The position numbers and the translations under genes are program-made. The notes beneath the pieces were generated by a model. It was not told where the DNA came from. It made no database searches and worked only from the letters and a program-made list of their open reading frames with translations. Positions 4,705 to 63,963 of a DNA stretch of 63,963 bases are shown piece by piece; positions within the stretch are counted from its first letter, which is position 1; each line of letters begins with the position of its first letter. This stretch comes from Eledone cirrhosa (lineage: Eukaryota): NCBI GenBank assembly GCA_964016885.1, contig OZ024741.1, forward strand, positions 352,718,001 to 352,781,963, read 5' to 3'.

Positions 4705-7700
4705 TGCAGTGCTGTCATAAAGTTGGTATGTGATAGGCTGGTATTGTATTGTCATAAGCTGGCAATGTCATGTCATGTCATAAACTGGCAATATTGTGTC
4801 ATAAGCAGGAAATCTATCGTAAGCTGGCAATGTTGTGTCATAAGCTGGCAATGTTGTGTCATAAGCTGGCAGTGTCGTTTCACAAGCTGGCAGTGTCGTC
4901 TCACAAGCTGGCAGTGTCGTCTCACAAGCTGGCAGTGTCATCTCACAAGCTGGCAGTGTTGTAGCAGGCAGTGTCGTCTCACAAGCTGGCAGTGTCGTCT
5001 CACAAGCCAGCAGTGTCGTCTCACAAGCTGGCAGTGTCGTCTCACAAGCTGGCAGTGTCGTCTCACAAGCTGGCAGTGTCGTCTCACAAGCTGGCAGTGT
5101 CGTCTCACAAGCCAGCAGTGTCGTCTCACAAGCTGGCAGTGTCGTCTCACAAGCCAGCAGTGTCGTCTCACAAGCCAGCAGTGTCGTCTCACAAGCCAGC
5201 AGTGTCGTCTCACAAGCTGGCAGTGTCGTCTCACAAGCTGGCAGTGTCGTCTCACAAGCTGGCAGTGTCGTCTCACAAGCTGGCAGTGTCGTCTCACAAG
5301 CCGGCAGTGTCGTCTCACAAGCCAGCAGTGTCGTCTCACAAGCCAGCAGTGTCGTCTCACAAGCCAGCAGTGTCGTCTCACAAGCTGGCAGTGTCGTCTC
5401 ACAAGCTGGCAGTGTCGTCTCACAAGCTGGCAGTGTCGTCTCACAAGCTGGCAGTGTCGTCTCACAAGCCAGCAGTGTCGTCTCACAAGCTGGCAGTGTC
5501 GTCTCACAAGCTGGCAGTGTCGTCTCACAAGCTGGCAGTGTCGTCTCACAAGCTGGCAGTGTCGTCTCACAAGCCAGCAGTGTCGTCTCACAAGCTGGCA
5601 GTGTCGTCTCACAAGCTGGCAGTGTCGTCTCACAAGCTGGCAGTGTCGTCTCACAAGCTGGCAGTGTCGTCTCACAAGCTGGCAGTGTCGTCTCACAAGC
5701 TGGCAGTGTCGTCTCACAAGCTGGCAGTGTCGTCTCACAAGCTGGCAGTGTCATCTCACAAGCTGGCAGTGTTGTAGCAGGCAGTGTCGTCTCACAAGCT
5801 GGCAGTGTCGTCTCACAAGCCAGCAGTGTCGTCTCACAAGCTGGCAGTGTCGTCTCACAAGCTGGCAGTGTCGTCTCACAAGCTGGCAGTGTCGTCTCAC
5901 AAGCTGGCAGTGTCGTCTCACAAGCTGGCAGTGTCGTCTCACAAGCCAGCAGTGTCGTCTCACAAGCTGGCAGTGTCGTCTCACAAGCTGGCAGTGTCGT
6001 CTCACAAGCCAGCAGTGTCGTCTCACAAGCTGGCAGTGTCGTCTCACAAGCTGGCAGTGTCGTCTCACAAGCTGGCAGTGTCGTCTCACAAGCTGGCAGT
6101 GTCGTCTCACAAGCTGGCAGTGTCGTCTCACAAGCTGGCAGTGTCGTCTCACAAGCTGGCAGTGTCGTCTCACAAGCCAGCAGTGTCGTCTCACAAGCCG
6201 GCAGTGTCGTCTCACAAGCTGGCAGTGTCGTCTCACAAGCTGGCAGTGTCGTCTCACAAGCTGGCAGTGTCGTCTCACAAGCTGGCAGTGTCGTCTCACA
6301 AGCTGGCAGTGTCGTCTCACAAGCTGGCAGTGTCGTCTCACAAGCTGGCAGTGTCGTCTCACAAGCTGGCAGTGTCGTCTCACAAGCTGGCAGTGTCGTC
6401 TCACAAGCTGGCAGTGTCGTCTCACAAGCTGGCAGTGTCGTCTCACAAGCCAGCAGTGTCGTCTCACAAGCCAGCAGTGTCGTCTCACAAGCCAGCAGTG
6501 TCGTCTCACAAGCTGGCAGTGTCGTCTCACAAGCTGGCAGTGTCGTCTCACAAGCTGGCAGTGTCATCTCACAAGCTGGCAGTGTTGTAGCAGGCAGTGT
6601 CGTCTCACAAGCTGGCAGTGTCGTCTCACAAGCTGGCAGTGTCGTCTCACAAGCTGGCAGTGTCGTCTCACAAGCTGGCAGTGTCGTCTCACAAGCTGGC
6701 AGTGTCGTCTCACAAGCTGGCAGTGTCGTCTCACAAGCTGGCAGTGTCGTCTCACAAGCTGGCAGTGTCGTCTCACAAGCCAGCAGTGTCGTCTCACAAG
6801 CTGGCAGTGTCGTCTCACAAGCTGGCAGTGTCGTCTCACAAGCTGGCAGTGTCGTCTCACAAGCTGGCAGTGTCGTTTCACAAGCTGGCAGTGTCGTTTC
6901 ACAAGCTGGCAGTGTCGTCTCACAAGCTGGCAGTGTCATCTCACAAGCTGGCAGTGTTGTAGCAGGCAGTGTCGTCTCACAAGCTGGCAGTGTCGTCTCA
7001 CAAGCCAGCAGTGTCGTCTCACAAGCTGGCAGTGTCGTCTCACAAGCTGGCAGTGTCGTCTCACAAGCTGGCAGTGTCGTCTCACAAGCTGGCAGTGTCG
7101 TCTCACAAGCCATCAGTGTCGTCTCATAAGCTGGCAGTGTCGTCTCACAAGCTGGCAGTGTCGTCTCACAAGCTGGCAGTGTCGTCTCACAAGCTGGCAG
7201 TGTCGTCTCACAAGCTGGCAGTGTCGTCTCACAAGCCGGCAGTGTTGTAGCAGGCAGTGTTGTCTCACAAGCTAGCAGTGTTGTAGCAGGCAGTGTCGTC
7301 TCACAAGCTGGCAGTGTCGCCCCACAAGCTGGCAGTGTCGTGTCATAAGCTGGCAGTGTCGTGTCATAAGCTGGCAGTGTCATGTCATAAGCTGGCAGTG
7401 TCATGTCTTAGTATGGCGGTGTCGTGTCATAAGCTGGCAGTGTCATGTCTTAGTATGGCAGTGTTGTGTCATAAGCTGGCAGTGTTATGTCTTAGTATGG
7501 CAGTGTCATGTCTTAGTATGGCAGTGTCATGTCTTAGTATGGCAGTGTCGTGTCATAAGCTGGCAGTGTCATGTCATAAGCTGGCAGTGTCGTGTCATAA
7601 GCTGGCAGTGTCGTGTCATAAGCTGGCAGTGTCATGTCTTAGTATGGCGGTGTCGTGTCATAAGCTGGCAGTGTCGTGTCATAAGATGGCAGTGTTGTGT

Positions 7701-8290
7701 CATAAGCTGGCAGCGTCATGTCTTAGTATGGCGGTGTCGTGTCATAAGCTGGCAGTGTCATGTCTTAGTATGGCAGTGTCGTGTCATAAGCTGGCAGTGT
7801 CGTGTCATAAGATGGAAGTGTCGTGTCATAAGATGGAAGTGTCGTGTCATAAGATGGCAGTGTCGTGTCATAAGATGGCAGTGTCGTGTCATAAGATGGC
7901 AGTGTCGTGTCATAAGATGGCAGTGTCGTGTCATAAGATGGCAGTGTCGTGTCATAAGATGGCAGTGTCGTGTCATAAGATGGCAGTGTCGTGTCATAAG
8001 CTGGCAGTGTCATGTCTTAATATGGCAGTGTCGTGTCTTAGTATGGCAGTGTCATGTCTTAGTATGGCAGTGTCATGTCTTAGTATGGCAGTGTCATGTC
8101 ATAAGATGGCAGTGTCATGCCTTAGTATGGCAGTGTCATGTCTTAGTATGGCAGTGTCATGTCTTAGTATGGCAGTGTCATGTCATAAGATGGCAGTGTC
8201 ATGCCTTAGTATGGCAGTGTCATGTCATAAGATGGCAGTGTCATGCCTTAGTATGGCAGTGTCATGTCATAAGATGGCACTGTCTTATGG
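4705..8290. repeat. 21-bp minisatellite (~170 units), core AGTGTCGTCTCACAAGCTGGC, with diverged flanking variants
   Basis: Direct tandem repetition; the 7-aa periodic ORFs (CRLTSWQ, ACETTLP, AVSSHKL) are by-products. Confidence 0.98.
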
Positions 8291-44833: not shown

Positions 44834-47340
<2,507 letters not shown>

Positions 47341-49146
47341 GATAGGAGTAACTATAGAGGCATTAAATTAATCGACCAGGTCATGAAGGTCACGGAAAAA
47401 GTAATAGCGCAACTAATCAGAGAGAGAATTGATCTAGATGAAATGCAGTTCGGGTTTGTGTCAGGCAAAAGCACCACAGACGCTCTTTTCATAGTACGAC
47501 AACTACAGGAGAAGTACCTAGCTAAAGGTAAACCCCTCTACTTAGCTTTTGTCGACCTGGAGAAAGCCTTCGACAGAGTCCCCCGCTCCATTATCTGGTG
47601 GGCTCTTAGAAAACTAGGCGTTGACGAATGGCTTGTGAGGGCTATACAAGCCATGTATAAAGAAACAGTCAGCAAGGTTAGAATTAACAACGAATATAGT
47701 GAAGAGTTAAGCGTAAAAGTTGGCGTCCATCAGGGCTCTGTTCTCAGCCCCCTACTATTTATTATTGCCCTTCAGGCTATAACAGAGGAGTTCAAGACAG
47801 GCTGCCCATGGGAACTCCTATACGCAGACGACCTGACACTCATAGCGGAATCAATGGCCGAGCTAGAGAAGAAATTCCAAACATGGAAGCACGGCCTAGA
47901 GTCAAAAGGACTTAAAATTAACCTGGCTAAGACCAAAGTTCTAGTTTGTAGGAAAGAAAACAAGGCGGCGGTCCCTTCTGGGAAATGGTCGTGCTCGGTA
48001 TGTAGGAAAGGCGTAGGTAGAAACTCCATCTTATGTCCTAAATGCAAAGTATGGGTGCATAAAAGATGTAGTGGGATCACAGGTAAGCTAACTAAGAACA
48101 TAGACTTTACATGTGGCCGGTGTTCTGGTGCAATAAGTAGCAGCAAGTGCCCACAAAATACTAGCTCTTTCAATTGCGCAGAGGGTTTTATAGAAATAGT
48201 GGACAGCTTCCGTTACCTGGGCGATAAAATCAGCAGTGGGGGAGGGTGCCCTGAAAGTACTGTAGCTAGAGTCAGAACTGGTTGGAAAAAGTTCAGAGAG
48301 CTTATACCACTATTAGCTGCTAAAGGGTTCTCCCTAAAAATGAAAGGCAGGTTGTACGATGCCTGCATACGAACAGCAATGTTGCATGGTAGTGAGACCT
48401 GGGCATTGTGTGCAGAGGATATACGCAGACTAGAGAGGAACGAAGCTTGCATGCTCCGCTGGATGTGTAACAGTAATATACGTGAACGGCAAAGCATAAA
48501 CGAACTAAGGAAAAAATTAGAGATAAGAGGGATCAGATGTTGTTTACTCGAGAGAAGGCTGCGTTGGTATGGACACGTGATGCGCATGAAAGTCGATAGC
48601 TGTATTACAAAGTGCAGGGCAATAAAGATAGACGGTAGCCACGGAATAGGCAGACCTAGAAAAACATGGGATGAGCTGATAAACTCCGACCTCACACACT
48701 TACACCTCTCCAAGACAATGTCACTGGACCGTGACCTTTGGCGGTACTCAGTAACAGAGAAGACCCGCCTTGCCAGTAGGCATCTCTAACAAAATACACC
48801 CCTCCCGCCGCCACCCCCACCCCATCCACACCACCCCGTTCTATGTAAAGTTATGTTGGTGCCGCGCCATCCAGGCCGAAACAAATGAGATCGTGTAGGT
48901 GTCACGACAAAAAAACACACAGTCCACGCTGTAATGTGGCCGTGTAGGCAACACGGTAAAAACCTCCCAGACCCACACTGTAAATGTGGTTGGTGTTAGG
49001 AAGGGCATCCAACTGTAGAAAACCTGCCAGACAGTCCTATGCGAGCAAGACAATCACTCTTGCCTCAAGTGGGACTACCCCCGTCCAAACCCATGCAAGC
49101 GTGGAACACGGACGTTAAACGTTGATGATGATGATGATGATGATGA
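47341..49146 (+). mobile_element. 5'-truncated young RTE LINE; open ORF 47383-48789 (RT + PHD finger)
   Basis: QFGFV, AFVDLEKAFD, GVHQGSVLSPLLF, LLYADD motifs; (GAT)n tail; flanked by TA repeats. Confidence 0.97.
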
Positions 49147-49196
49147 TATGTTTATATATATATATTTATATATATATATATATTTATATATATATT

Positions 49197-49325: not shown

Positions 49326-49580
49326 ATATTTATATAGTTTTGCGAGGTTTTTTATATGAAATCGTGTGTCGAAACAGATATTGTTATATTTGGGGAGGGT
49401 CATATTTGCGTAATATTGCCAGAATTAATAACAGAACACACTCACTGTTTGGTTGGTTTTCGCTTCTCGCTGTCTTTTATATATATATATCTGCGATCTA
49501 ACTTACTCGGTCCTCAATGTTGCCATTGACTGACCGGCGGTCAAAAATAATACAGATACAATATAGACAAACACATATAT

Positions 49581-49638
49581 ATATAGTTTACATAAATCTT
49601 TCGTTGCACATCTGCAACATCGTCAGTGGTGTTATATT
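49581..49638 (-). ncRNA. Hammerhead ribozyme (minimal type I) in the 3' pLTR of PLE A
   Basis: Minus strand ..CA-CTGACGA-T-GTTGCA gatg TGCAAC-GAA-AGATTT-A|TG..: intact core, 6-bp stem II, quasi-palindromic stem III, short stem I. Confidence 0.78.
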
Positions 49639-49904
49639 CATTGTTCCTCCTGTTGTGTTGTATGTCTACGCCATTTTTTTTTTTTTTGTTCAGTCTGTCT
49701 ATATATTTATTTATTTATTTGCTTGTTTGTTTATCTTATTTTATTTTGTCTTCTTTGCGCATGCGTTTGCGTGTGTGTATAGTGTTATGTGTGATGTGTG
49801 ACTAGTGTGTATAGTGTTGTGTCTGCTGGGTGACTAGTGTGTGTTTATGTGCTTGTGTATGTATTTATTTATCTTATTTTATTTAATTTAATTTACTTAT
49901 TTAT

Positions 49905-52900
49905 TTATACTTCTCTTAGGTCAGTGTTGTTTGTTTGGGTGTTGTTGTTGTTCCACTCATTCTTTCTGTTTAGCTTTGGTCTTCTAATTTCTATTTCACT
50001 GGCCTCTCTGATTTGCCTATCTGCTGGGTCATTCCTATGTTTAGATATTATTCTAATTTCTATGTTGTCTATGTTACCGTCATGATGTTGTCTAGCATGT
50101 TCGTATAGTACTGACCCGTTTTTTCGTCCTTTTAGTTCCCCCCAGTGTTGGTCTATCCTTTCACCTATGCTACGAGCTGTCTCACCTATGTATGTTGTTG
50201 TCGTGTTTCTGCAAGTACCCTCTGTACATCTTATGCTATAGACTACGTTTCTAGTTTTACAGTTTATCCGGGGGTTCACCTTACATATGATACATTTCCT
50301 ATTGGTACAGTGGGTTTTCTTAAAAGGGTAGGTTTTGCTGATCAGGGATTTTATGGTGGTTCCTGGCTTTTCTACCACCTTTATTTTTAAGTGGGTCTTT
50401 CTCAGGGCCTTTCTACACTGGTTAGCTAATTTCCCTCCAGGGGTGGCGTCCACAAACATGACACTCTGATATCTCTGGTTGTCGTACCATGATGTGGCCT
50501 TCCCTATCTTATGTCTAGCCCTATCTAAGCTATTCCATGATTTGCTCCTGTATAGTGGGCAAATTCCTTTCATGTCCAGTTCTATGAGGGTCTTATACTT
50601 TTCCATGGCTCCTTCGTATACTCTGACTCTGTCTCTTTGGTTGTAGCCAGAGAACTGCATGCGGTTGATGAAGTGTTGGATGTGTCCTTCCATTTCTGTT
50701 GGGTCGCACATGCTGGACACATTCTTCATCACTCGTACCAAATCTGCGATCAGAATATTAAACTTAGCACTACTGGACATTGCTGAGTTTTTGAGTATCA
50801 GGTATTTGGAGGCCATGGGTTTAGCATAGTGTGAGTGGAGAATTTGGGCTCTCTCGTCTATAGTGTTAATCCAGAGTTCTGTGTCTAATACAGGTAGTCT
50901 ATTGTTAGAGTGTTTGGAAGGGAAGTCTATAGTTACAGTTATACTCTGGTGTATGGAATTAGCTATCTGCTGGATGCTTTCCATCGTGCTACGTTCTAAA
51001 TCAAACTTGTTAGTGCTCTCTAGTGGGGGTGTTCTTATAACTATATTGATATCGTCTACATAACGAGAGTACATGATGAGGTCTATGGAGCTTTCATTAA
51101 GGAGATCTTTAAGTCTCCTTTCCCACCATACCATGAAAAGGTTGGCAACATCGCCAGCTATGCTGACGCCGATGGCTGCTCCCTCATTTTGGGTGTAGAT
51201 TTTCTCATTGAACTTAAATATGTGGCCCTTTAGGGTAGTTTTGATACTAGCCCCTATTGCATGTGCGACCATTTTTCTTACCTGATCAGTGTTTTGGGGG
51301 GTCCGTATAGCTTTGGTCCACCCAATCCACCTTCCTATGGGAGTCTTTTTAGCCATTGAGGTTATGGTGGGGGGTCTACCTCTTATAGGTCTACTAGGGC
51401 AGAAACATCTAAGGTCATGGCTGTCTAGGTAGTCAGTGTCGTAGGTAAGTCTAAGTAGGAGGCCCAGTTCGTCTGTGTCGACGTCGCAGAACTCCACCTC
51501 ACTCTCAATGATCATCTCCACACATCTTTTCACAGCAAAATCAATGTTAATGGATGGGTACAGTGACACCACATCCATGCTGCCTATTATGCAGTTGGAT
51601 AGGCTCCTGTTTTTGTTGCACTCACTGATTCTGCTGAGGAGGTCCTCTGTACTTTCACATACATCTGGGGACATCTTGATTATGGGGCGTATAACCATTG
51701 AGAGGAAGTAGGAGATCCTGTAGTTGCTAGCTATATTAGCTCCGCATACAGGTCTTGTTGGTGGTCCTATTGTCGGGTCGTCGACTGTCTTGTGGTCTTT
51801 GCGGAGCCCATACAAGGGTGGTATGCCATTGTTAGACGCCTGGAAGTTGTTGGCAGTGCGTCTGCTTGGCTTTAGGATGTCAGTCCACATCATCATGTGA
51901 GCGTTGAGGATTTTTTCTCTCCCATCGTGTGTTAGTTGTGCAACTTCGCTCGTGTTGGTGATGTGGGGTTGCATTGCCTCGATGTAGTTCGGCATGCTAT
52001 CTATTGACATCCTACCAGACTTATCTGTGGGTAGACACACTACCTCACCATCCCTTGTGCGCTGCTTGAGGCTAACCAAGCCTTCTACAGGTTTTATCCC
52101 AAGTTGTTGGGCCTCTGGTCTGCTCTGTCTCATAGTGTACCTGTCTACTACTTGTCTAATCTTATTTCTAGCTATGGTGAACTGTGCCTCCGTCTCGTCA
52201 TCTATTTGTTGTGGTATGCAAACTCTTTTATTAAAGGGTAGCCTCGTAGGATAGATATTACCCATCTTATATGTTTTGTCAGCTGGGTTGAAAAATAGTT
52301 TCTCTAAGGGGTTGTCGTTATTTCTATCGTCATAGTTGTGTGTGTTGCTATTATTGTTATCATGGTGGTTGTTGTTGTTTCTATCCTTAGCATTAATATT
52401 ATTATTGTTATGATTGCTAGATGTATTGTTGTTTACTTCACCGTTATTGTTGTTGTTGTTACTGCTATTTCTACCATTGTGGTTGTTACTATTATTATGT
52501 TTCTTGTTTTTGTTGATGTTGCTACATGTACTATTTCCATTATTACCACTGTGGTTATTGTTGTTGTTGTTGTTCGTATTGTTACCGTTATTACTACTGT
52601 GGTCACTGTTGCTGTGTCTGTGGTTAACGTTTCTATTATTATTATTATTGTGGTTGTTGTTGTTCTGTCTATCGCTAGTATTATTACCATTATCACTATT
52701 TCTCACTTTCCTGCCATTGTTATGGTTATGGCTGTTATTTCTATACCCAGAGTTATTGTTTATATTACTACTACCGTTATTATTGTTGTTGTTGTTTACC
52801 TTTGCATTCCAACGTATTTTTGTGAAACACTTTTCCAGCTCCGTTTTGCATTCCATAGGATTAATCTTTTTGTAGATGGCAAATTTTGGTGGTAACTTTA

Positions 52901-53537
52901 GGATTTGTTGTTCTTGTTCACTGATTAAAGTGTTCCCATAGATATTTACTGTGTGGTCATTGGTAAATTCTTCCGGTAGTTTTACATCACTCATACGGAT
53001 GTTGTCGATGTTATCTGGGTATTTTTGAGAATATTCGATTTTCCTTTCTTGTAGTTTTTTCTTATTCATCCATTCTAATTTCTTCTTGAAATGCCTACAG
53101 CATTCGTTTTGAGCATATTTCGTTTCGCGTCGGATGACGCTCATGAAGTCATCTCTCTCGTTTGCTGTGATGAGATTTCGGATTTCCTTACCGTTGATGC
53201 GTTTTTGTCTGTAGAGTGCGTTGACTTTTGTGTATGTTGTTCTTTTCATATTAACTGTTATTGTGTGTTTTAGCCGTTCAGCTTGTGTTTTGTTCAATAA
53301 TAAATTATTTACTTGTTTTGATATGTTTGTTGTGTATGTTTTGGAGGAAACACAGTGTTTTAAGAAGCGGATTTGTTCTGTTGTTATTGTAGTTTTTATA
53401 TAACAGAAAACAGTGTCTTTCAATAACCTTTCAGCTTGGCACAAGCTAATGCCATAGCGGCGATGAATTAGTTTTGCGAGGTTTTTTATATGAAATCGTG
53501 TGTCGAAACAGATATTGTTATATTTGGGGAGGGTCAT
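49905..53537 (-). CDS. PLE polyprotein, 1210 aa: N-terminal domain with Asn-rich insert, RT (PTDKSG, YGLRKDHK, MDVVSLYPSI, RYVDD), Cys-rich linker, C-terminal GIY-YIG endonuclease (NVVY...YIGETAR...E...PKLN)
   Basis: Uninterrupted ORF with the PLE catalytic motifs. Confidence 0.95.
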   Translation of the reverse strand: MTLPKYNNICFDTRFHIKNLAKLIHRRYGISLCQAERLLKDTVFCYIKTTITTEQIRFLKHCVSSKTYTTNISKQVNNLLLNKTQAERLKHTITVNMKRTTYTKVNALYRQKRINGKEIRNLITANERDDFMSVIRRETKYAQNECCRHFKKKLEWMNKKKLQERKIEYSQKYPDNIDNIRMSDVKLPEEFTNDHTVNIYGNTLISEQEQQILKLPPKFAIYKKINPMECKTELEKCFTKIRWNAKVNNNNNNNGSSNINNNSGYRNNSHNHNNGRKVRNSDNGNNTSDRQNNNNHNNNNNRNVNHRHSNSDHSSNNGNNTNNNNNNNHSGNNGNSTCSNINKNKKHNNSNNHNGRNSSNNNNNNGEVNNNTSSNHNNNNINAKDRNNNNHHDNNNSNTHNYDDRNNDNPLEKLFFNPADKTYKMGNIYPTRLPFNKRVCIPQQIDDETEAQFTIARNKIRQVVDRYTMRQSRPEAQQLGIKPVEGLVSLKQRTRDGEVVCLPTDKSGRMSIDSMPNYIEAMQPHITNTSEVAQLTHDGREKILNAHMMMWTDILKPSRRTANNFQASNNGIPPLYGLRKDHKTVDDPTIGPPTRPVCGANIASNYRISYFLSMVIRPIIKMSPDVCESTEDLLSRISECNKNRSLSNCIIGSMDVVSLYPSINIDFAVKRCVEMIIESEVEFCDVDTDELGLLLRLTYDTDYLDSHDLRCFCPSRPIRGRPPTITSMAKKTPIGRWIGWTKAIRTPQNTDQVRKMVAHAIGASIKTTLKGHIFKFNEKIYTQNEGAAIGVSIAGDVANLFMVWWERRLKDLLNESSIDLIMYSRYVDDINIVIRTPPLESTNKFDLERSTMESIQQIANSIHQSITVTIDFPSKHSNNRLPVLDTELWINTIDERAQILHSHYAKPMASKYLILKNSAMSSSAKFNILIADLVRVMKNVSSMCDPTEMEGHIQHFINRMQFSGYNQRDRVRVYEGAMEKYKTLIELDMKGICPLYRSKSWNSLDRARHKIGKATSWYDNQRYQSVMFVDATPGGKLANQCRKALRKTHLKIKVVEKPGTTIKSLISKTYPFKKTHCTNRKCIICKVNPRINCKTRNVVYSIRCTEGTCRNTTTTYIGETARSIGERIDQHWGELKGRKNGSVLYEHARQHHDGNIDNIEIRIISKHRNDPADRQIREASEIEIRRPKLNRKNEWNNNNTQTNNTDLREV

Positions 53538-53714
53538 ATTTGCGTAATATTGCCAGAATTAATAACAGAACACACTCACTGTTTGGTTGGTTTTCGCTTC
53601 TCGCTGTCTTTTATATATATATATCTGCGATCTAACTTACTCGGTCCTCAATGTTGCCATTGACTGACCGGCGGTCAAAAATAATACAGATACAATATAG
53701 ACAAACACATATAT

Positions 53715-53772
53715 ATATAGTTTACATAAATCTTTCGTTGCACATCTGCAACATCGTCAGTGGTGTTATATT
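53715..53772 (-). ncRNA. Hammerhead ribozyme in the internal pLTR of PLE A, ~190 nt upstream of the ATG
   Basis: Identical to 49581-49638. Confidence 0.78.
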
Positions 53773-54040
53773 CATTGTTCCTCCTGTTGTGTTGTATGTC
53801 TACGCCATTTTTTTTTTTTTTTTGTTCAGTCTGTCTATATATTTATTTATTTATTTGCTTGTTTGTTTATCTTATTTTATTTTGTCTTCTTTGCGCATGC
53901 GTTTGCGTGTGTGTATAGTGTTATGTGTGATGTGTGACTAGTGTGTATAGTGTTGTGTCTGCTGGGTGACTAGTGTGTGTTTATGTGCTTGTGTATGTAT
54001 TTATTTATCTTATTTTATTTAATTTAATTTACTTATTTAT

Positions 54041-55821
54041 TTATACTTCTCTTAGGTCAGTGTTGTTTGTTTGGGTGTTGTTGTTGTTCCACTCATTCTT
54101 TCTGTTTAGCTTTGGTCTTCTAATTTCTATTTCACTGGCCTCTCTGATTTGCCTATCTGCTGGGTCATTCCTATGTTTAGATATTATTCTAATTTCTATG
54201 TTGTCTATGTTACCGTCATGATGTTGTCTAGCATGTTCGTATAGTACTGACCCGTTTTTTCGTCCTTTTAGTTCCCCCCAGTGTTGGTCTATCCTTTCAC
54301 CTATGCTACGAGCTGTCTCACCTATGTATGTTGTTGTCGTGTTTCTGCAAGTACCCTCTGTACATCTTATGCTATAGACTACGTTTCTAGTTTTACAGTT
54401 TATCCGGGGGTTCACCTTACATATGATACATTTCCTATTGGTACAGTGGGTTTTCTTAAAAGGGTAGGTTTTGCTGATCAGGGATTTTATGGTGGTTCCT
54501 GGCTTTTCTACCACCTTTATTTTTAAGTGGGTCTTTCTCAGGGCCTTTCTACACTGGTTAGCTAATTTCCCTCCAGGGGTGGCGTCCACAAACATGACAC
54601 TCTGATATCTCTGGTTGTCGTACCATGATGTGGCCTTCCCTATCTTATGTCTAGCCCTATCTAAGCTATTCCATGATTTGCTCCTGTATAGTGGGCAAAT
54701 TCCTTTCATGTCCAGTTCTATGAGGGTCTTATACTTTTCCATGGCTCCTTCGTATACTCTGACTCTGTCTCTTTGGTTGTAGCCAGAGAACTGCATGCGG
54801 TTGATGAAGTGTTGGATGTGTCCTTCCATTTCTGTTGGGTCGCACATGCTGGACACATTCTTCATCACTCGTACCAAATCTGCGATCAGAATATTAAACT
54901 TAGCACTACTGGACATTGCTGAGTTTTTGAGTATCAGGTATTTGGAGGCCATGGGTTTAGCATAGTGTGAGTGGAGAATTTGGGCTCTCTCGTCTATAGT
55001 GTTAATCCAGAGTTCTGTGTCTAATACAGGTAGTCTATTGTTAGAGTGTTTGGAAGGGAAGTCTATAGTTACAGTTATACTCTGGTGTATGGAATTAGCT
55101 ATCTGCTGGATGCTTTCCATCGTGCTACGTTCTAAATCAAACTTGTTAGTGCTCTCTAGTGGGGGTGTTCTTATAACTATATTGATATCGTCTACATAAC
55201 GAGAGTACATGATGAGGTCTATGGAGCTTTCATTAAGGAGATCTTTAAGTCTCCTTTCCCACCATACCATGAAAAGGTTGGCAACATCGCCAGCTATGCT
55301 GACGCCGATGGCTGCTCCCTCATTTTGGGTGTAGATTTTCTCATTGAACTTAAATATGTGGCCCTTTAGGGTAGTTTTGATACTAGCCCCTATTGCATGT
55401 GCGACCATTTTTCTTACCTGATCAGTGTTTTGGGGGGTCCGTATAGCTTTGGTCCACCCAATCCACCTTCCTATGGGAGTCTTTTTAGCCATTGAGGTTA
55501 TGGTGGGGGGTCTACCTCTTATAGGTCTACTAGGGCAGAAACATCTAAGGTCATGGCTGTCTAGGTAGTCAGTGTCGTAGGTAAGTCTAAGTAGGAGGCC
55601 CAGTTCGTCTGTGTCGACGTCGCAGAACTCCACCTCACTCTCAATGATCATCTCCACACATCTTTTCACAGCAAAATCAATGTTAATGGATGGGTACAGT
55701 GACACCACATCCATGCTGCCTATTATGCAGTTGGATAGGCTCCTGTTTTTGTTGCACTCACTGATTCTGCTGAGGAGGTCCTCTGTACTTTCACATACAT
55801 CTGGGGACATCTTGATTATGG
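54041..55821 (-). pseudogene. 5'-truncated tandem copy of the PLE A ORF (RT core + GIY-YIG)
   Basis: Translation matches the C-terminal ~590 aa of the 1210-aa ORF; the predicted N-terminus runs into the inverted pLTR. Confidence 0.93.
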
Positions 55822-55971
55822 CAACATTGAGGACCGAGTAAGTTAGATCGCAGATATATATATATAAAAGACAGCGAGAAGCGAAAACCAACCAAACAGT
55901 GAGTGTGTTCTGTTATTAATTCTGGCAATATTACGCAAATATGACCCTCCCCAAATATAACAATATATATT

Positions 55972-56004
<33 letters not shown>

Positions 56005-56131
56005 ATATATATTTATATATTTATATATATATATATATATTTATATATTTATATATATATATTTATATATATATATATTTATATATTTATATATATTTAT
56101 TTATATATATATATTTATATATATATTTATT

Positions 56132-56162
<31 letters not shown>

Positions 56163-56351
56163 ATTTATATATATATATTTATATATATTTATATATATAT
56201 ATATATATTTATTTATATATATATATTTATTTATATATATATTTATTTATATATATATTTATTTATATATATATATTTATATATATATATATATATATTT
56301 ATTTATATATATATTTATTTATATATATATATTTATTTATATATATATATT

Positions 56352-56402
<51 letters not shown>

Positions 56403-56455
56403 ATATTTATTTATATATATATATTTATTTATATATATATATTTATTTATATATT

Positions 56456-56540
<85 letters not shown>

Positions 56541-56550
56541 ATATTTATAT

Positions 56551-56993
56551 ATCATCATCATCATCATCATCAACGTTTAACGTCCGTGTTCCACGCTTGC
56601 ATGGGTTTGGACGGGGGTAGTCCCACTTGAGGCAAGAGTGATTGTCTTGCTCGCATAGGACTGTCTGGCAGGTTTTCTACAGTTGGATGCCCTTCCTAAC
56701 ACCAACCACATTTACAGTGTGGGTCTGGGAGGTTTTTACCGTGTTGCCTACACGGCCACATTACAGCGTGGACTGTGTGTTTTTTTGTCGTGACACCTAC
56801 ACGATCTCATTTGTTTCGGCCCGGATGGCGCGGCACCAACATAACTTTACATAGGACGGGGTGGTGTGGATGGGGTGGGGGTGGTGGTGGTGGGACGGGG
56901 TGTATTTTGTTAGAGATGCCTACTGGCAAGGCGGGTCTTCTCTGTTACTGAGTACCGCCAAAGGTCTCGGTCCAGTGACATTGTCTTGGAGAG
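56551..56993 (-). mobile_element. RTE 3' end (last codons + UTR) in the TA array
   Basis: Apparently identical to 29870-30311. Confidence 0.95.
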
Positions 56994-57532: not shown

Positions 57533-60500
57533 GTACTCATTTTTCTAGCTTTCTAACATCCGCTTAATCCATAGTCCTTCCAAACCTATTTCCTCCTGTA
57601 TTTTCCAAAACAAATCTCTTGTATTTTGTCCTGATTGTAAAATATGGAAGTTTTTGGCGTATCTTACTAAACAAATCTTGTATTTTTGTTTACGTTCGTA
57701 AAATACTAGGATCTAACTTAAACCTATTCCTCTCGCTAACAACTCAACACCCCTCCCTTCTGCCCCCACGCACCACCATTATTATCACGTGGACCAATCA
57801 TAAGCCAGAGGCCTATACTATCACTTACCTGGTCGCCTTCGGTATGTAGGATGGAAGGACTACGGAGTTCCGGAGAGTTGAAGAGAGAAAAATCTGGACG
57901 CTCAGCGACAATGCCAAAGTTAAAGACAAACACACCTCGTGGACGAGAATGCGAACATGCCTCTTTGTTTCGGCCGCGGATGGCTAACACAACCCCATCT
58001 CCCCCCTCTCCCCACCTTTCCCACCCTCCAAACGCAATCCCAAACTTCAGATTTGGTACCTTGAATGTAGGCACCTTAAAGGGTCGCTCTAACGAGGTTG
58101 TAGAAATGCTTGAACGTAAGGAGGTCGATGTTTGTTGTATTCAAGAGACCAGGTGGAGGGGTGGATCTGCTAGATTCATTGTGGGTAGAAAACGATGCTA
58201 TAAGCTTTTCTGGGTGGGAAATGACAATGGGCTGTGTGGGGTAGGAATCATGGTAGCAGAAAAGTGGGCAGATAAGATAATAGACGTAAATAGAGTGAAC
58301 GACAGAATAATTAAAATAAGACTTGTCCTCAATAGAACCACGGTGACAGTAATATCCGCGTACGCACCCCAATCCGGACTGCCCAGCACTATAAAAGACA
58401 GATTCTATGAGACACTGATGCTCACTACCTCCCAAATAATCGACAGTGACTATATAATTATTGCAGGCGACCTAAACGGTCACGTTGGACAACATTGTGA
58501 CGGCTACGACGAAATCCATGGAGGCTATGGGTTTGGTACTAGAAATGAGGAAGGCTCCAGAATCCTGGAATTCTGTGACGCAAATAACCTAACTATCTGC
58601 AACACTAACTTCAAAAAACAAGACAATCACTTGATCACCTACAGATCAGGGGAACATACCAGCCAGGTAGATTATATCCTTACCAGAAGATGTGACAAAG
58701 TGACTGTTGTAAACACTAAATCCCTCCCCCATGAAGAATGCACCTCCCAACATAGACTGATAATTAGCGACCTAATAGTCAGGACGAGACGTACTAGGCA
58801 ACAGAAGAGGACTACCCTCAGGAGAAAAATATGGAAGCTAAAGGACCCCACAGCCAAAAATAAATTCCAAAGCATATTACTTGATGCTTTCGACAGTAAG
58901 GAAGAGCAAATAGAGTCGTACAAGGTAGAGGAACAGTGGGAATTCCTGAAAGCAAACCGGCTGACGGCGACAGACGAAGTCTGTGGCTGGAGCAGACCTG
59001 TAGGCAGGAGGAGAGTAACATGGTGGTGGAACAGTAAGGTGGAGGGGTCAATTAAGGCCAAAAAGCAGGCTTGGAAAGTATGGCGGGATGGGGGGAAGCA
59101 GAGAAGACTATCAAGTGGCCAGGAGGGAAGCTAGGAGACAAGTGTACTTCGCAAGAAGGGAAGCAGAGGAAAGAAAGTTCAAGCATGTTCTACAACGTGA
59201 GGACCAAAAACGTGAGGTGTTCAGGATTGCTAGGCAATGTGTCAAGGAAAACAGTGATATTGTCGGGGAGAAGTGTGTACTTAACGATGACGGCGTACTT
59301 GCCATCACCGACGCCGATAAGAAGGTAGCTTGGAAGTGTCACTATGAAAGGCTACTCAATGAGGAGACTAAATGGGAGAAAGACAGTCTCCCCCACATCG
59401 ACCCAATAGAGGGACCAGCAGTGTTAGTCGAGGGTAGTAAAATAAGTAAGGCAATCAAAGATATGAAGACAGGCAAGGCGGCTGGGCCTTCGGAAATAGT
59501 TGCCGAGATGCTGAAGGCATCTGGTACGGTGGGACACACCATGGTCACCCGGATAGTCAACCAAGTCATACAGAATGGGGTTGTTCCGAAGGACTGGCGT
59601 AGCAGCATTATCGTTAACTGTTATAAGGGTAAAGGAGATGCCCTAGATAGGAGTAACTATAGAGGCATTAAATTAATCGACCAGGTCATGAAGGTCACGG
59701 AAAAAGTAATAGCGCAACTAATCAGAGAGCGAATTGATCTAGATGAAATGCAGTTCGGGTTTGTGTCAGGAAAAAGTACCACAGACGCTCTTTTCATTGT
59801 ACGACAACTACAGGAGAAGTACCTAGCTAAAAGTAAACCCCTATACTTAGCTTTCGTCGACTTGGAGAAGGCCTTCAACAGAGTCCCCCGTTCCATTATC
59901 TGGTGGGCTCTTAGAAAACTAGGTGTCGATGAATGGCTTGTGAGAGCTATACAAGCCATGTATAAAGAAACAGTCAGCAAGGTTAGAATTAACAACGAAT
60001 ATAGTGAAGAGTTTAGTGAAAAAGTTGCTGTTCATCAGGGCTCTGTTCTTAGCCCCCTACTATTTATTATTGCCCTCCAGTCTATAACAGTGGAGTTCAA
60101 GACCGGCTGCCCATGGGAACTCCTATACGCAGATGATCTAACGCTCATAGCTGAATCAATGGCCGAGCTAGAGAAGAAATTCCAAACATGGAAGCACGGG
60201 CTAGAATCAAAAGGCCTTAAAATTAACCTGGCTAAGACTAAAGTTCTAGTTTGTAAGAAAGAAAATAAGGCGGCGGTCCCCTCCGGGAAGTGGCCATGCG
60301 CAGAGTGTAGGAAAGGCGTAGGTAGAAATTCCATTTTGTGTCCCAAATGCAAAGTCTGGGTTCATAAAAGATGTAGTAGGATCACAGGTAAGCTAACTAA
60401 GAACATAGATTTTACATGTGGCCGGTGTTCTGGGGCAATAAGTAGCAGCAAGTGCCCACAAAATACTAGCTCTTTCAACTGCGCAGAGGGTTCTATAGAA

Positions 60501-61452
60501 ATAGTGAACAGCTTCCGTTACCTGGGTGACAAAATCAGCAGTGGGGGAGGGTGCTCTGAAAGTACAGTAGCTAGAGTCAGAACTGGGTGGAAAAAGTTCA
60601 GAGAGCTTATACCACTATTAGCCGCTAAAGGGTTCTCCCTAAAAATGAAAGGCAGGTTGTACGATGCCTGCATACGAACAGCAATGTTGCATGGCAGTGA
60701 GACCTGGGCATTGTGTGCAGAGGATTTACGCAGACTAGAGAGAAACGAAGCTTGCATGCTCCGCTGGATGTGTAATAGTAATATACGTGAACGACAAAAC
60801 ATAAACGAACTAAGGAAAAAATTAGAAATATGAGGGATCAGATGTTGTTTACTAGAGAGAAGGCTACGTTGGTATGGTCACGTGATGCGCATGAAGGACG
60901 ATAGCTGTATAACAAAGTGCAGGGCAATAAAGATAGACGGTAGCCACGGAATAGGCAGACCCAGAAAAACCTGGGACGAGCTGATAAACTCCGACCTCAC
61001 ACACTTACACCTCACCAAGACAATGTCACTGGACCGAGACCTTTGGCGGTATTCAGTAATAGAGAAGACCCGCCTTACCTAAATACAAAGTAAAACCTAC
61101 TACAGTCAGTAGGCATCTCTAACAAAATACACCCCCGTCCCACCACCCCCACCCCATCCACACCGCCCCCTTCTATGTAAAGTTATGTTGGTGCCACACC
61201 ATCCAGGCCGAAACAAATGAGATTGTGTAGGTGTCACGACAAAAAAACACACAGTCCACGCTGTAATGTGGCCGTGTAGGCAACACGGTAAAAACCTCCC
61301 AGACCCACACTGTAAATGTGGTTGGTGTTAGGAAGGGCATCCAACTGTAGAAAACCTGCCAGACAGTCCTATGCGAGCAAGACAATCACTCTTGCCTCAA
61401 GTGGGAAAACCCCCGTCCAAATCCATGCAAGCGTGGAACACGGACGTTAAAC

Positions 61453-61494
<42 letters not shown>
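57533..61494 (+). mobile_element. Near-full-length RTE LINE (~3.96 kb): 5' UTR, AP endonuclease, RT, PHD finger, 3' UTR, (GAT)n tail
   Basis: GTLNV, CIQETRW, AGDLNGHVG, IDY-like QVDYIL, SQHRL in the EN domain; RT motifs as above; 5' boundary approximate. Confidence 0.93.
57851..61082 (+). pseudogene. RTE ORF broken by a +1 frameshift in a G6 run (59090-59095) and an AGA>TGA stop (60831-60833)
   Basis: ORFs 57851-59134, 59088-60833 and 60882-61082 join into one EN-RT protein; sister copies have AGA at the stop position. Confidence 0.88.
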
Positions 61495-61802
61495 ATATAT
61501 ATATATATATATATGTATGAATGAAGTAATTCCATCGGAAAAGTCCAGGAAAAAAGAGTGCTCTATGTAGGCAACAGAACTTAATTATTATTATTATGTA
61601 ATAAACAACATAAGGCAATTATTCCATTTACCAGTGGTTTCTTAAAAGCAAAAGGCTTTGCTTTCAATCCTCAGAATGAAAAAATCCTGGTTTGTTTATT
61701 GAATTTGGATTTTAAAACAAAAATGCAATCTCTCTATATATATATTTATTTATATATATGTATATATTTATTTATATATATATTTATTTATTTATATATA
61801 TA

Positions 61803-61834
<32 letters not shown>

Positions 61835-62335
61835 GTTATACTTGGGGAGGGTCATATTTGTGTAATATTGCCAGAATTAATAACAGAACACACTCACTGT
61901 TTGGTTGGTTTTCGCTTCTCGCTGTCTTTTATATCTGCGATCTAACTTAATCGGTCCTCAATGTTGCCATTGACTGACCGACGGTCAAAAATAATACAGA
62001 TACAATATAGACACAAACACATATATAGTTTACATAATTTACATAAATCTTTCGTTGCACATCTGCAACATCGTCAGTGGTGTTATATTTTTTCCTCCTG
62101 TTGTGTTGTATGTCTACGCCATTTTTTATTCAGTCTGTCTATATATTTATTTATTTATTTGCTTGTTTGTTTATTTTATTTTGTCTTCTTTGCGCATGCG
62201 TTTGCGTGTGTGTACAGTGTTGTGTGTGCTGTGTGACTAGTGTGTATAGTGTTGTGTCTGCTGGGTGACTAGTGTGTGTTTATGTGCTTGTTGTTATTGT
62301 GCTTGTGTATGTATTTATTTATCTTATTTTATTTA
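61835..62335 (-). mobile_element. PLE family A pLTR (slightly diverged), inverted relative to the family B body
   Basis: Aligns to ~49383-49885 with a few SNPs and indels; contains an HHR. Confidence 0.93.
62035..62090 (-). ncRNA. Hammerhead ribozyme, family A type
   Basis: Same core and stem II as 49581-49638. Confidence 0.75.
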
Positions 62336-62921
62336 GAAAGGCCCTAAATAAACATAAACTCAATATTAAGATAGTAGAAAGACCAGGTACCTCCGTAAAA
62401 ACACTTATTAGCAAGACATACCCTTTTCAAAGACCCTCATGTATAGATAAGAAATGTATAACCTGTAAAATAAGCCCCCATATTAACTGTAAAACTAGAA
62501 ACGTAGTGTATAGCATAAGATATACGGAAGGACAATGTAGAGACAAAAATATAGTGTACATAGGTGAGACAGCTCGTAGTGTAGGGGAACGGATAAATGA
62601 ACACTGGCGAGACCTTCAAGATAGTAAAGAATCATCTGTACTCTACCAACATGCTAAAATAGAACACAAGGGTAAATTAGAGAACAGAGAAATAAAAATA
62701 GAATCTACACACAGAAAAGACCCAATGTTTAGACAAATTACAGAGGCAATAAACATAAAAGAATTACAACCAAAATTAAATAGAAAATATGAGTGGAACA
62801 GCAACATCACAACTTACAATTAAGGACAAAATGAAAACACACACACACACATAGAACAAACAACCAGCCAGTAACATGTAAATAAACAAATAAATAAATG
62901 AACATAAACACACACAGACAC

Positions 62922-62941
62922 CCGGATGTGGCGCATGCGCA
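62922..62941 (+). promoter_or_regulatory. Candidate pLTR promoter: ETS-like CCGGATGTG next to NRF1-like GCGCATGCGCA
   Basis: GCGCATGCG is also kept in the family A pLTR (49756-49765), upstream of the HHR, while flanking sequence differs. Confidence 0.35.
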
Positions 62942-63026
62942 GACTGAGCACAAAACACACACACAGAAACAAAATGGCATAGGACAGAACAAAGGAGAGG
63001 CACAGAAACAAAGAAAGGAATTCCCA

Positions 63027-63067
63027 GTCACTGAAGAGGTCGGAGTGTGTGACGAAAGAACTATGAC
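63027..63067 (+). ncRNA. Hammerhead ribozyme, family B pLTR
   Basis: GTCA-CTGAAGA-G-GTCG gagtgtg TGAC-GAA-AGAACT-A|TGAC: 4-bp stem I, stem II, CUA cleavage triplet; same position relative to the ATG as in family A. Confidence 0.82.
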
Positions 63068-63234
63068 AATATATAAACAACTATCTGGTTGTGGAACCAA
63101 CCAACCAACCAGAAATTTATAAATTTATTATAAATTTATTATAATAATAAATTGAAGTGAAAGCAACTGGTGCATGTGTTTCTTATTGGCAACATGACCC
63201 TCCCAAAGTATAACAATATATTTATATATATATT

Positions 63235-63309
<75 letters not shown>

Positions 63310-63350
63310 ATATATATATTTATATATATATTTATATTTATATATATATT

Positions 63351-63447
<97 letters not shown>

Positions 63448-63472
63448 ATATATATTTATATTTATATATATT

Positions 63473-63527
<55 letters not shown>

Positions 63528-63530
63528 ATT

Positions 63531-63597
<67 letters not shown>

Positions 63598-63620
63598 ATT
63601 TATATATATATATATTTATA

Positions 63621-63653
<33 letters not shown>

Positions 63654-63808
63654 ATACTTATATATATTTATATATATACTTATATATATTTATATATATA
63701 TATATGTATTTATATATGTTTATATATATATATGTTTATATATATATATGTTTATATATATATATATGTTTATATATATATATATGTTTATATATATATA
63801 TATATGTT

Positions 63809-63845
<37 letters not shown>

Positions 63846-63866
63846 ATGTTTATATATATATATATT

Positions 63867-63897
<31 letters not shown>

Positions 63898-63963
63898 ATA
63901 TATATAAATATATATATATATCTTTATATATATTTATATACATATGGAAGTCGGTGTTGTAAC

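Follow-up and report, generated by a model that had tools for sequence, protein, structure and literature searches.

Inverted, 5'-truncated copies of PLEs are described with a tail often at one end and with a bias for (TA)n, and their formation is called undefined in the accessible part of PMC8557442. The commonest form of Penelope is a partial tandem with inverted repeats (PMC2377424). In the part of PMC3846280 that was available, a tail was described on one inverted pLTR, joining of 5' ends by microhomology and microhomology deletions were recorded, a self-priming hypothesis was put forward, and no cross-mobilization was seen. A CX2-5CxxC linker is found in Neptune and Nematis (PMC8557442). 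Double insertion of TEs at preferred targets has also been described (PMC5932611), and the accessible portion of a preprint (bioRxiv 10.64898/2026.07.22.740005) contained nothing on inverted joints.

The protein of PAc (Poseidon of Anolis carolinensis) nicks and extends both strands, prefers ATT, begins RT at two sites by which the tail is delimited, and has been predicted to form a dimer (PMC11167929). The extension of both strands was not linked to inverted pLTRs in the available part of that paper.

In the literature that we covered, no report was found of cross-family PLE inverted joints, PLE twin priming, or a counted one-tail rule; subscription reviews and supplements lie outside this scope, and the statement is not proof of absence. 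In L1 twin priming, two primers from one break produce an inverted junction with short microhomology, as is seen in PLE pairs. Twin priming of L1 inverts the upstream segment without duplication, whereas PLE pairs duplicate the 3' end. A PLE pair therefore needs either a single RNA with two start sites or a pair of RNAs.

Here, we analyzed a stretch of 63,963 nt (the window) from the 3.0-Gb assembly of Eledone cirrhosa, in which two different PLE families, A and B, are joined head-to-head. We concluded that the joint looks real and is most likely a secondary product of two ordinary PLE families.

Genomic setting of the joint

The right third of the window is TA-rich and crowded with insertions of RTE-like LINEs, PLEs and the end of a third family (Table 1). 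Very long (TA)n arrays with TATT variants were found at 44914-47338, 55963-56552 and 63220-63945; these arrays form an insertion hotspot and contain PLEs, fragments, and copies of RTE-like LINEs that end in (GAT)n tails. The third-family end belongs to a repeat of which two copies (L208, L213) adjoin a 466-aa ORF that we take to be PLE-like by its motifs. At another locus (L187), a family B 5' end is fused directly to a sequence resembling this repeat. Far from this region, a minisatellite of about 167 copies of 21-nt units, open in several frames, occupies 4820-8284.

The family A element at 49335-55962 served as the reference structure. It has an open frame of 1184 residues (49905-53459), a homologous inverted arm joined at 55818 with a 4-nt overlap, and a tail at the left end only. 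The two units of its tandem are 99.9% identical over 2353 nt, the frame is unbroken, and the pLTR boundary has no in-frame ATG; the tandem is a very recent insertion. Upstream of the RT, the ORF has a long in-frame Asn-rich segment (about residues 220-390; window 52300-52900), which recalls the N-rich inserts of Adineta vaga Penelopes (PMC3846280). The family B copy L201 has an Asn/Thr/His-rich segment at a similar place.

Table 1. Positions in the window of the A/B joint, its parts and the neighboring elements.
Feature	Position	Strand	Remarks
RTE-like LINE copies	47339-49183; 57740-61494		endonuclease domain by Pfam
Family A PLE, partial tandem and inverted arm	49335-55962	-	reference structure for comparison
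Third-family end, 216 nt	61515-61730		abundant TA-associated repeat, 1742 genome candidates
Left (TA)n-rich tract	61731..61834		at the 3' end of the A half
Family A pLTR fragment	61835..62335	-	young subfamily A2; outer end TATAAC (61835-61840), no tail
Hammerhead-like core of A	62040..62083	-	CUGACGA, 7-bp stem II, GAAA; stem I weak; predicted only
Junction microhomology ATTT(A)	62331..62335		common to A (antisense) and B (sense); seen on aligning 30 copies of each family
Family B ORF C-terminus, 162 aa	62335..62823	+	CX4CxxC linker and GIY-YIG endonuclease
Family B pLTR	62824..63219	+	outer end TATAAC(AATAT) at 63209-63219, no tail
Hammerhead-like core of B	63027..63067	+	stem II shortened by 2 nt, a single occurrence in the genome
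Right (TA)n-rich array	63220..63945		at the 3' end of the B half

Structure of the joint and identity of its halves

A preliminary description of the window had placed a minus-strand family A pLTR head-to-head against a plus-strand family B fragment at about 62335. This fusion is present in the assembly, and the two halves in addition share an overlap of 4-5 nt that had been missed. The overlap (62331-62334/5) is 4 nt long against most A copies and 5 nt against copy L033, and the B half starts at 62331 and ends at 63219. As described earlier, both outer ends lie at TATAAC in (TA)n and no TA array separates the halves. The likeness to the usual inverted 5' pLTR also stood: the arms are head-to-head, they end at an RT start site, and the overlap is within 0-5 nt, comparable to the homologous joint at 55818.

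The A half is 5'-truncated about 20 nt past the ORF stop. Its identity to the A copies in the window (49378-49885 and 53512-54021) was 89% with indels counted, whereas identity to the 39 other best-scoring genome copies was 98-100%, which indicates a separate A subfamily. The 162-aa frame of the B half was identical to the C-terminus of family A at 89 of 148 residues (60%), in agreement with the value of about 60% given before. Its Pfam match to GIY-YIG was below threshold (E 8e-4). The family A protein carries a YVDD motif; Pfam gave no family on the whole protein, and on a trimmed part it gave RVT_1 below the cut-off (E 1.4e-4).

Families A and B have the organization of EN+ PLEs, namely a single ORF with RT and, at its C-terminal end, a GIY-YIG domain (the RT was seen in A, and the chimeric piece has none) and pLTRs derived from partial tandems, with an inverted 5' copy and an optional tail. 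The CCHH motif inside GIY-YIG is present in family A; in the B half its first Cys is replaced by Tyr, while 22 of 29 other B copies have the base of the Cys codon. Both proteins have a CX4CxxC linker before the EN domain, which fits the CX2-5CxxC form of Neptune and Nematis.

The chimera shares with canonical EN+ PLEs the head-to-head geometry, pLTR ends, (TA)n target and C-terminal GIY-YIG domain (PMC8557442; PMC3846280; PMC2377424), as well as the linker of Neptune/Nematis type and, in family A, the Asn-rich ORF insert (PMC8557442; PMC3846280). It differs from them in two ways: the arms stem from separate families, with 60% aa identity between them, and the tail is absent from both outer ends. 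Target-primed reverse transcription by PAc in vitro is similar in its two fixed 3' ends bounding the tail, its AT-rich targets and its use of either strand, and the ATT preferred by PAc is present at the A/B joint; in contrast, the linker motif in A and B is that of a different clade, and the PAc work, in its available part, did not include an RNA of a second family (PMC11167929). As in double TE insertion, where independent insertions gather at a preferred site (PMC5932611), and in the 5' microhomology joining of Pen2_Av, which proceeds without TSD and stands beside common microhomology deletions in PLE copies (PMC3846280), a shared target and a short overlap are found here. The difference is that two families are involved and no target duplication is left in the joint.

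A hammerhead ribozyme had been proposed for each half. With CUGANGA, stem II and GAAA as the motif that we assumed for a hammerhead-like core, a core is visible in both halves. Rfam, on the other hand, found no hammerhead in the whole window (E 1) or in 61830-63215 (E 10), stem I of the A core is weak, and the B core, with its 2-nt deletion, does not fold as the intact B copy L003, which folds with stems I and II.

The chimera appears to be single. Among the best 40 genome candidates, only the chimera itself matched A and B together, which gave no sign that a chimeric family had been amplified. An exact 30-mer across the junction occurred once in the genome, and no A or B match that could represent a reciprocal product was found in 29 kb beyond the window. 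The suggestion that such joints exchange promoters and ribozymes was not borne out at this locus, where the piece lacks an RT, the B hammerhead-like stem is broken, and no second copy of the chimera was found.

Mixed joints among inverted pairs

To place the joint in context, head-to-head ends were counted genome-wide with gapped 16-mer patterns; the B end alone has 25,674 exact matches in the genome. Ends 300-360 nt apart gave 525 B/B, 240 A/A and 6 A/B matches, and ends 361-420 nt apart gave 746 in total, including 5 A/B. Five further windows (120-299, 421-481 and 510-568 nt) gave 10 A/B matches, with denominators measured for the 300-360 and 361-420 nt windows only. The joint under study spans 1.35 kb from end to end and is outside the reach of these patterns.

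All 21 A/B matches were inspected. Fifteen were neighbors with TA or other sequence between them (two being one locus), reflecting crowding at the shared target. The rest were one mutated B/B pair, two simple direct joints (L121 and L162), and three TA-less joints with remains of the resident element's second arm (L155, L166 and L217). TA-less joints in the two windows with denominators made up 3 of 11 A/B matches (L121, L162 and L166), or 3 of about 1,517 inverted pairs (about 0.2%), whereas free family mixing at the observed family shares would predict 43% A/B. Arms of the same family are therefore the norm in about 99.8% of pairs genome-wide, and the A/B chimera departs from it.

A search with the pattern for tailless ends added one more joint of the stub type (L250). 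Heterologous joints besides the one described here, which had been expected to exist, thus number six (L121, L162, L155, L166, L217 and L250), and four of these (L155, L166, L217 and L250) keep part or all of the second arm of the resident element. L217 has the 5' end of a family A copy fused straight onto an intact B pair at its outer end. Two joints have three parts and one tail overall: A minus, clipped A plus and tailed B plus in L155 (1486-2177), and tailed A minus, clipped B minus and B plus in L166 (1420-1918). Both could be accounted for by an insertion at a later time or by RT switching templates from one family to the other. At L201:1520-2033 (G000:C3:151347019 onward), a tailless A arm with one extra base lies on the head of a multi-unit B tandem, and this is the best remaining candidate for co-insertion of two RNAs.

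Subfamily and tail patterns of ordinary pairs

Fidelity extended to subfamilies. At a diagnostic C/T site, scored by eye, 50 listed A/A pairs were C/C in 14 and T/T in 36, with no mixed pair. Genome-wide, 4 mixed A-subfamily pairs were found in the 300-360 nt window against about 97 expected; L172 and L174 resemble single-site changes, L173 is ambiguous, and L175 may be real. In 15 pairs of each family, arms diverged by 2.5% (A) and 2.8% (B) within pairs and by 4.8% and 6.4% between pairs, where a match within pairs fits one RNA and two RNAs of the same locus alike and could be raised by gene conversion between close arms. The youngest B pair showed a divergence of 0.5%. Within pairs, the two families diverge to a similar degree, which shows that their periods of activity overlapped; timing alone is therefore not enough to explain the missing mixing.

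In ordinary inverted pairs, each arm terminates at one of two fixed positions: at TATAAC or where the tail, a segment of 45-65 nt, ends. The tail was present on exactly one arm in 27 of 30 pairs picked by pattern and in 10 of 11 B pairs ordered by position (37/41). Independent choice of start sites would give about half one-tail pairs, against about nine in ten in the sample. Across 30 pairs, the tail showed no apparent preference for the longer or the shorter arm. Three of the four exceptions were L128, which is not a pair and has its own internal tail stub, and L146 and L104/L105, which are read-throughs into the tandem ORF.

The fourth exception, L135, is a B/B pair with two tailless ends and mirrored flanks, which suggests that it arose by a fold-back rearrangement. 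As a general source of inverted arms, fold-back self-priming is less likely, since both arms stop at fixed sites, while L135 has a mirrored flank.

Pairs with two tailless ends do exist among homologous arms (L255, L256). The pattern for two tailless ends gave 19 matches genome-wide in the matching window, and about 5 of the 15 inspected were direct homologous pairs; the anchors of this pattern differ from those behind the total of 771, and perhaps half of such pairs are missed. From these numbers, the share of tailless/tailless pairs would be roughly 1-3%. Solo copies were untailed in 10 cases and tailed in 7. Taken with the pair counts, two untailed ends would be met about once in three times if the copies were independent, and in no more than a few of 100 cases if they came from a single event. 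The tail is absent from both outer ends of the A/B chimera, unlike the one-tail pattern.

Based on the genomic pattern and the PAc biochemistry, we infer that in ordinary inverted pairs one RNP nicks both strands in cis and makes one cDNA per RT start site. Double priming in cis with one arm per start site would give arms matched in family and exactly one tail. The preliminary description had invoked two independent priming events on opposite strands with separate RNAs. Priming on opposite strands agrees with arms that stop at two fixed sites and with PAc (PMC11167929), whereas an independent choice of RNAs does not agree with the fidelity of families and subfamilies, in which mixed A/B pairs were 3 of about 1,517 and mixed A subfamilies 4 against about 97.

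Joints that lack a TA spacer

The missing TA spacer was compared with other 5' ends. In 19 of 26 non-inverted copies, the 5' end abuts non-TA sequence; this count excludes 30 position-ordered B ends, several of which were mislabeled by alignment breaks in diverged copies, and some diverged copies inside the counted sets may carry the same mislabeling. The excluded B ends comprised 11 non-TA, 0 TA, 14 self-inverted, 2 tandem, 2 beyond the locus and 1 unscored. The youngest A set alone gave 6 non-TA (one being a tail stub) and 4 TA. Non-TA 5' ends are thus usual, and the missing spacer at the A/B joint is uninformative. Overlaps of 0-5 nt and short inserts are likewise usual at the joints of homologous pairs.

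Joints with an unrelated element provided a further control. PLE and RTE-like LINE ends lay head-to-head at 300-360 nt in 7 matches, 2 of which had no TA: L237 consists of B, a 29-nt stub of its own arm and RTE, and L234 of A, a 47-nt A piece and RTE. In L050, a family A 5' end lies on an RTE that is 3'-clipped by its last 161 nt. We would not expect a PLE dimer to load RTE RNA. The PLE/RTE joints therefore show that later insertion or deletion yields mixed joints without TA about as often as A/B joints occur.

Age of the two halves

Each DNA search scored the best 40 candidates (the best 40 of 2459 for B). The A half had no substitution in 500 nt to L033, the nearest of 29 copies. The B half had 14 differences in 795 nt to the nearest of 29 copies and 11 against the column majority; 7 variants were common to at most one other copy, and 3 were strictly private, one of which may belong to the 2-nt deletion. 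One-sided Fisher tests of A against B halves gave p 0.005 for the 11, 0.033 for the 7 and 0.23 for the 3 private substitutions. A 33-mer across B half variants occurred once in the genome, so no source copy with these variants is present in the assembly. The result leans towards a B half older than the A half, although a lost or unassembled source may have carried the variants.

The arms of the simple joints L121 and L162 show no clear age difference. Both arms of L121 were about 98% identical to their nearest relatives, and in L162 the values were 99% for A and 97-98% for B.

Origin of the joint

In our assessment, a young A copy probably inserted beside an older B copy or clipped it, or a deletion fused the two neighbors, and the A/B joint most likely represents a commonplace consequence of the crowding of many elements in TA tracts. 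B would have come first, inserted in (TA)n either alone and 5'-truncated or as a usual inverted pair whose left arm bore the tail. Later, a young A RNP would have nicked the TA tract on the left and reverse-transcribed about 500 nt, and the end of the A cDNA would have annealed at ATTT(A) in B, with loss of the TA spacer or of the left arm of B. Alternatively, the two insertions could have been followed by a microhomology-mediated deletion, with an identical product. The joint itself holds no target remnant and no second-arm stub, whereas stubs were seen in L155, L166, L217, L250, L234 and L237, so the locus offers no local proof of two steps.

An origin in one insertion from two RNAs is unlikely for this joint. 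It would take a single double-strand break, occupied by a PLE dimer or a pair of RNPs, in which one strand primed cDNA synthesis on A RNA and the opposite strand on B RNA, with the cDNAs joined at ATTT(A). The geometry and the overlap do match homologous pairs (4 nt at 55818), A and B have a common terminal motif, target and overlapping time of activity, and PAc extends both strands and is a predicted dimer (PMC11167929). Among the other joints, the head of a B tandem carries an A arm without a stub in L162, L155 and L166 keep one tail overall, and L175 may be a pair of mixed subfamilies. On the other side, the single event that had been proposed for this joint is disfavored by two tailless ends where 37 of 41 pairs have one tail, by the unequal divergence of the halves, and by mixed joints at about 0.2% against 43%, a level similar to that of PLE/RTE joints (2 in the same distance window). 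No B source copy was found in the assembly, and an aged B copy absent from it could have been the RNA donor of the B half variants. In a related reading, an asymmetric dimer acting on both strands of a break, with one arm per RT start site, would load the RNA of the other family in about one event per thousand, and the joint, or L162/L121, would be a direct fossil of such cross-family co-integration; for the locus described here, this is equally improbable. Across all seven A/B joints, it is possible, if doubtful, that at least one arose by co-integration of two RNAs.

Such a joint could also be an artefact of assembly or library, produced by a read that was chimeric close to where a contig ends, within a long stretch rich in TA. 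A 200-base run of N lies after the TA array on the right, and a contig end is therefore probably close by; the junction 30-mer is single-copy; and among the read records listed for 4 runs none bridged the joint. These records were short contigs and RAD reads whose relation to the assembled individual is uncertain, and their length would not suffice for testing an insertion that this individual alone carries. In contrast, both halves end properly at family termini, and six other A/B joints and two PLE/RTE joints are found elsewhere on large scaffolds. An artefact is thus very unlikely, and we prefer the secondary joining of two ordinary elements.

The survey of tails and families bears on the open question of how inverted pLTRs of PLEs and their one-sided tail form. 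The one-tail pattern, matched in family and subfamily, fits double priming in cis by one RNP, which is testable in the PAc in vitro system. If co-integration of two RNAs were true, it would provide a route to new chimeric PLE families.
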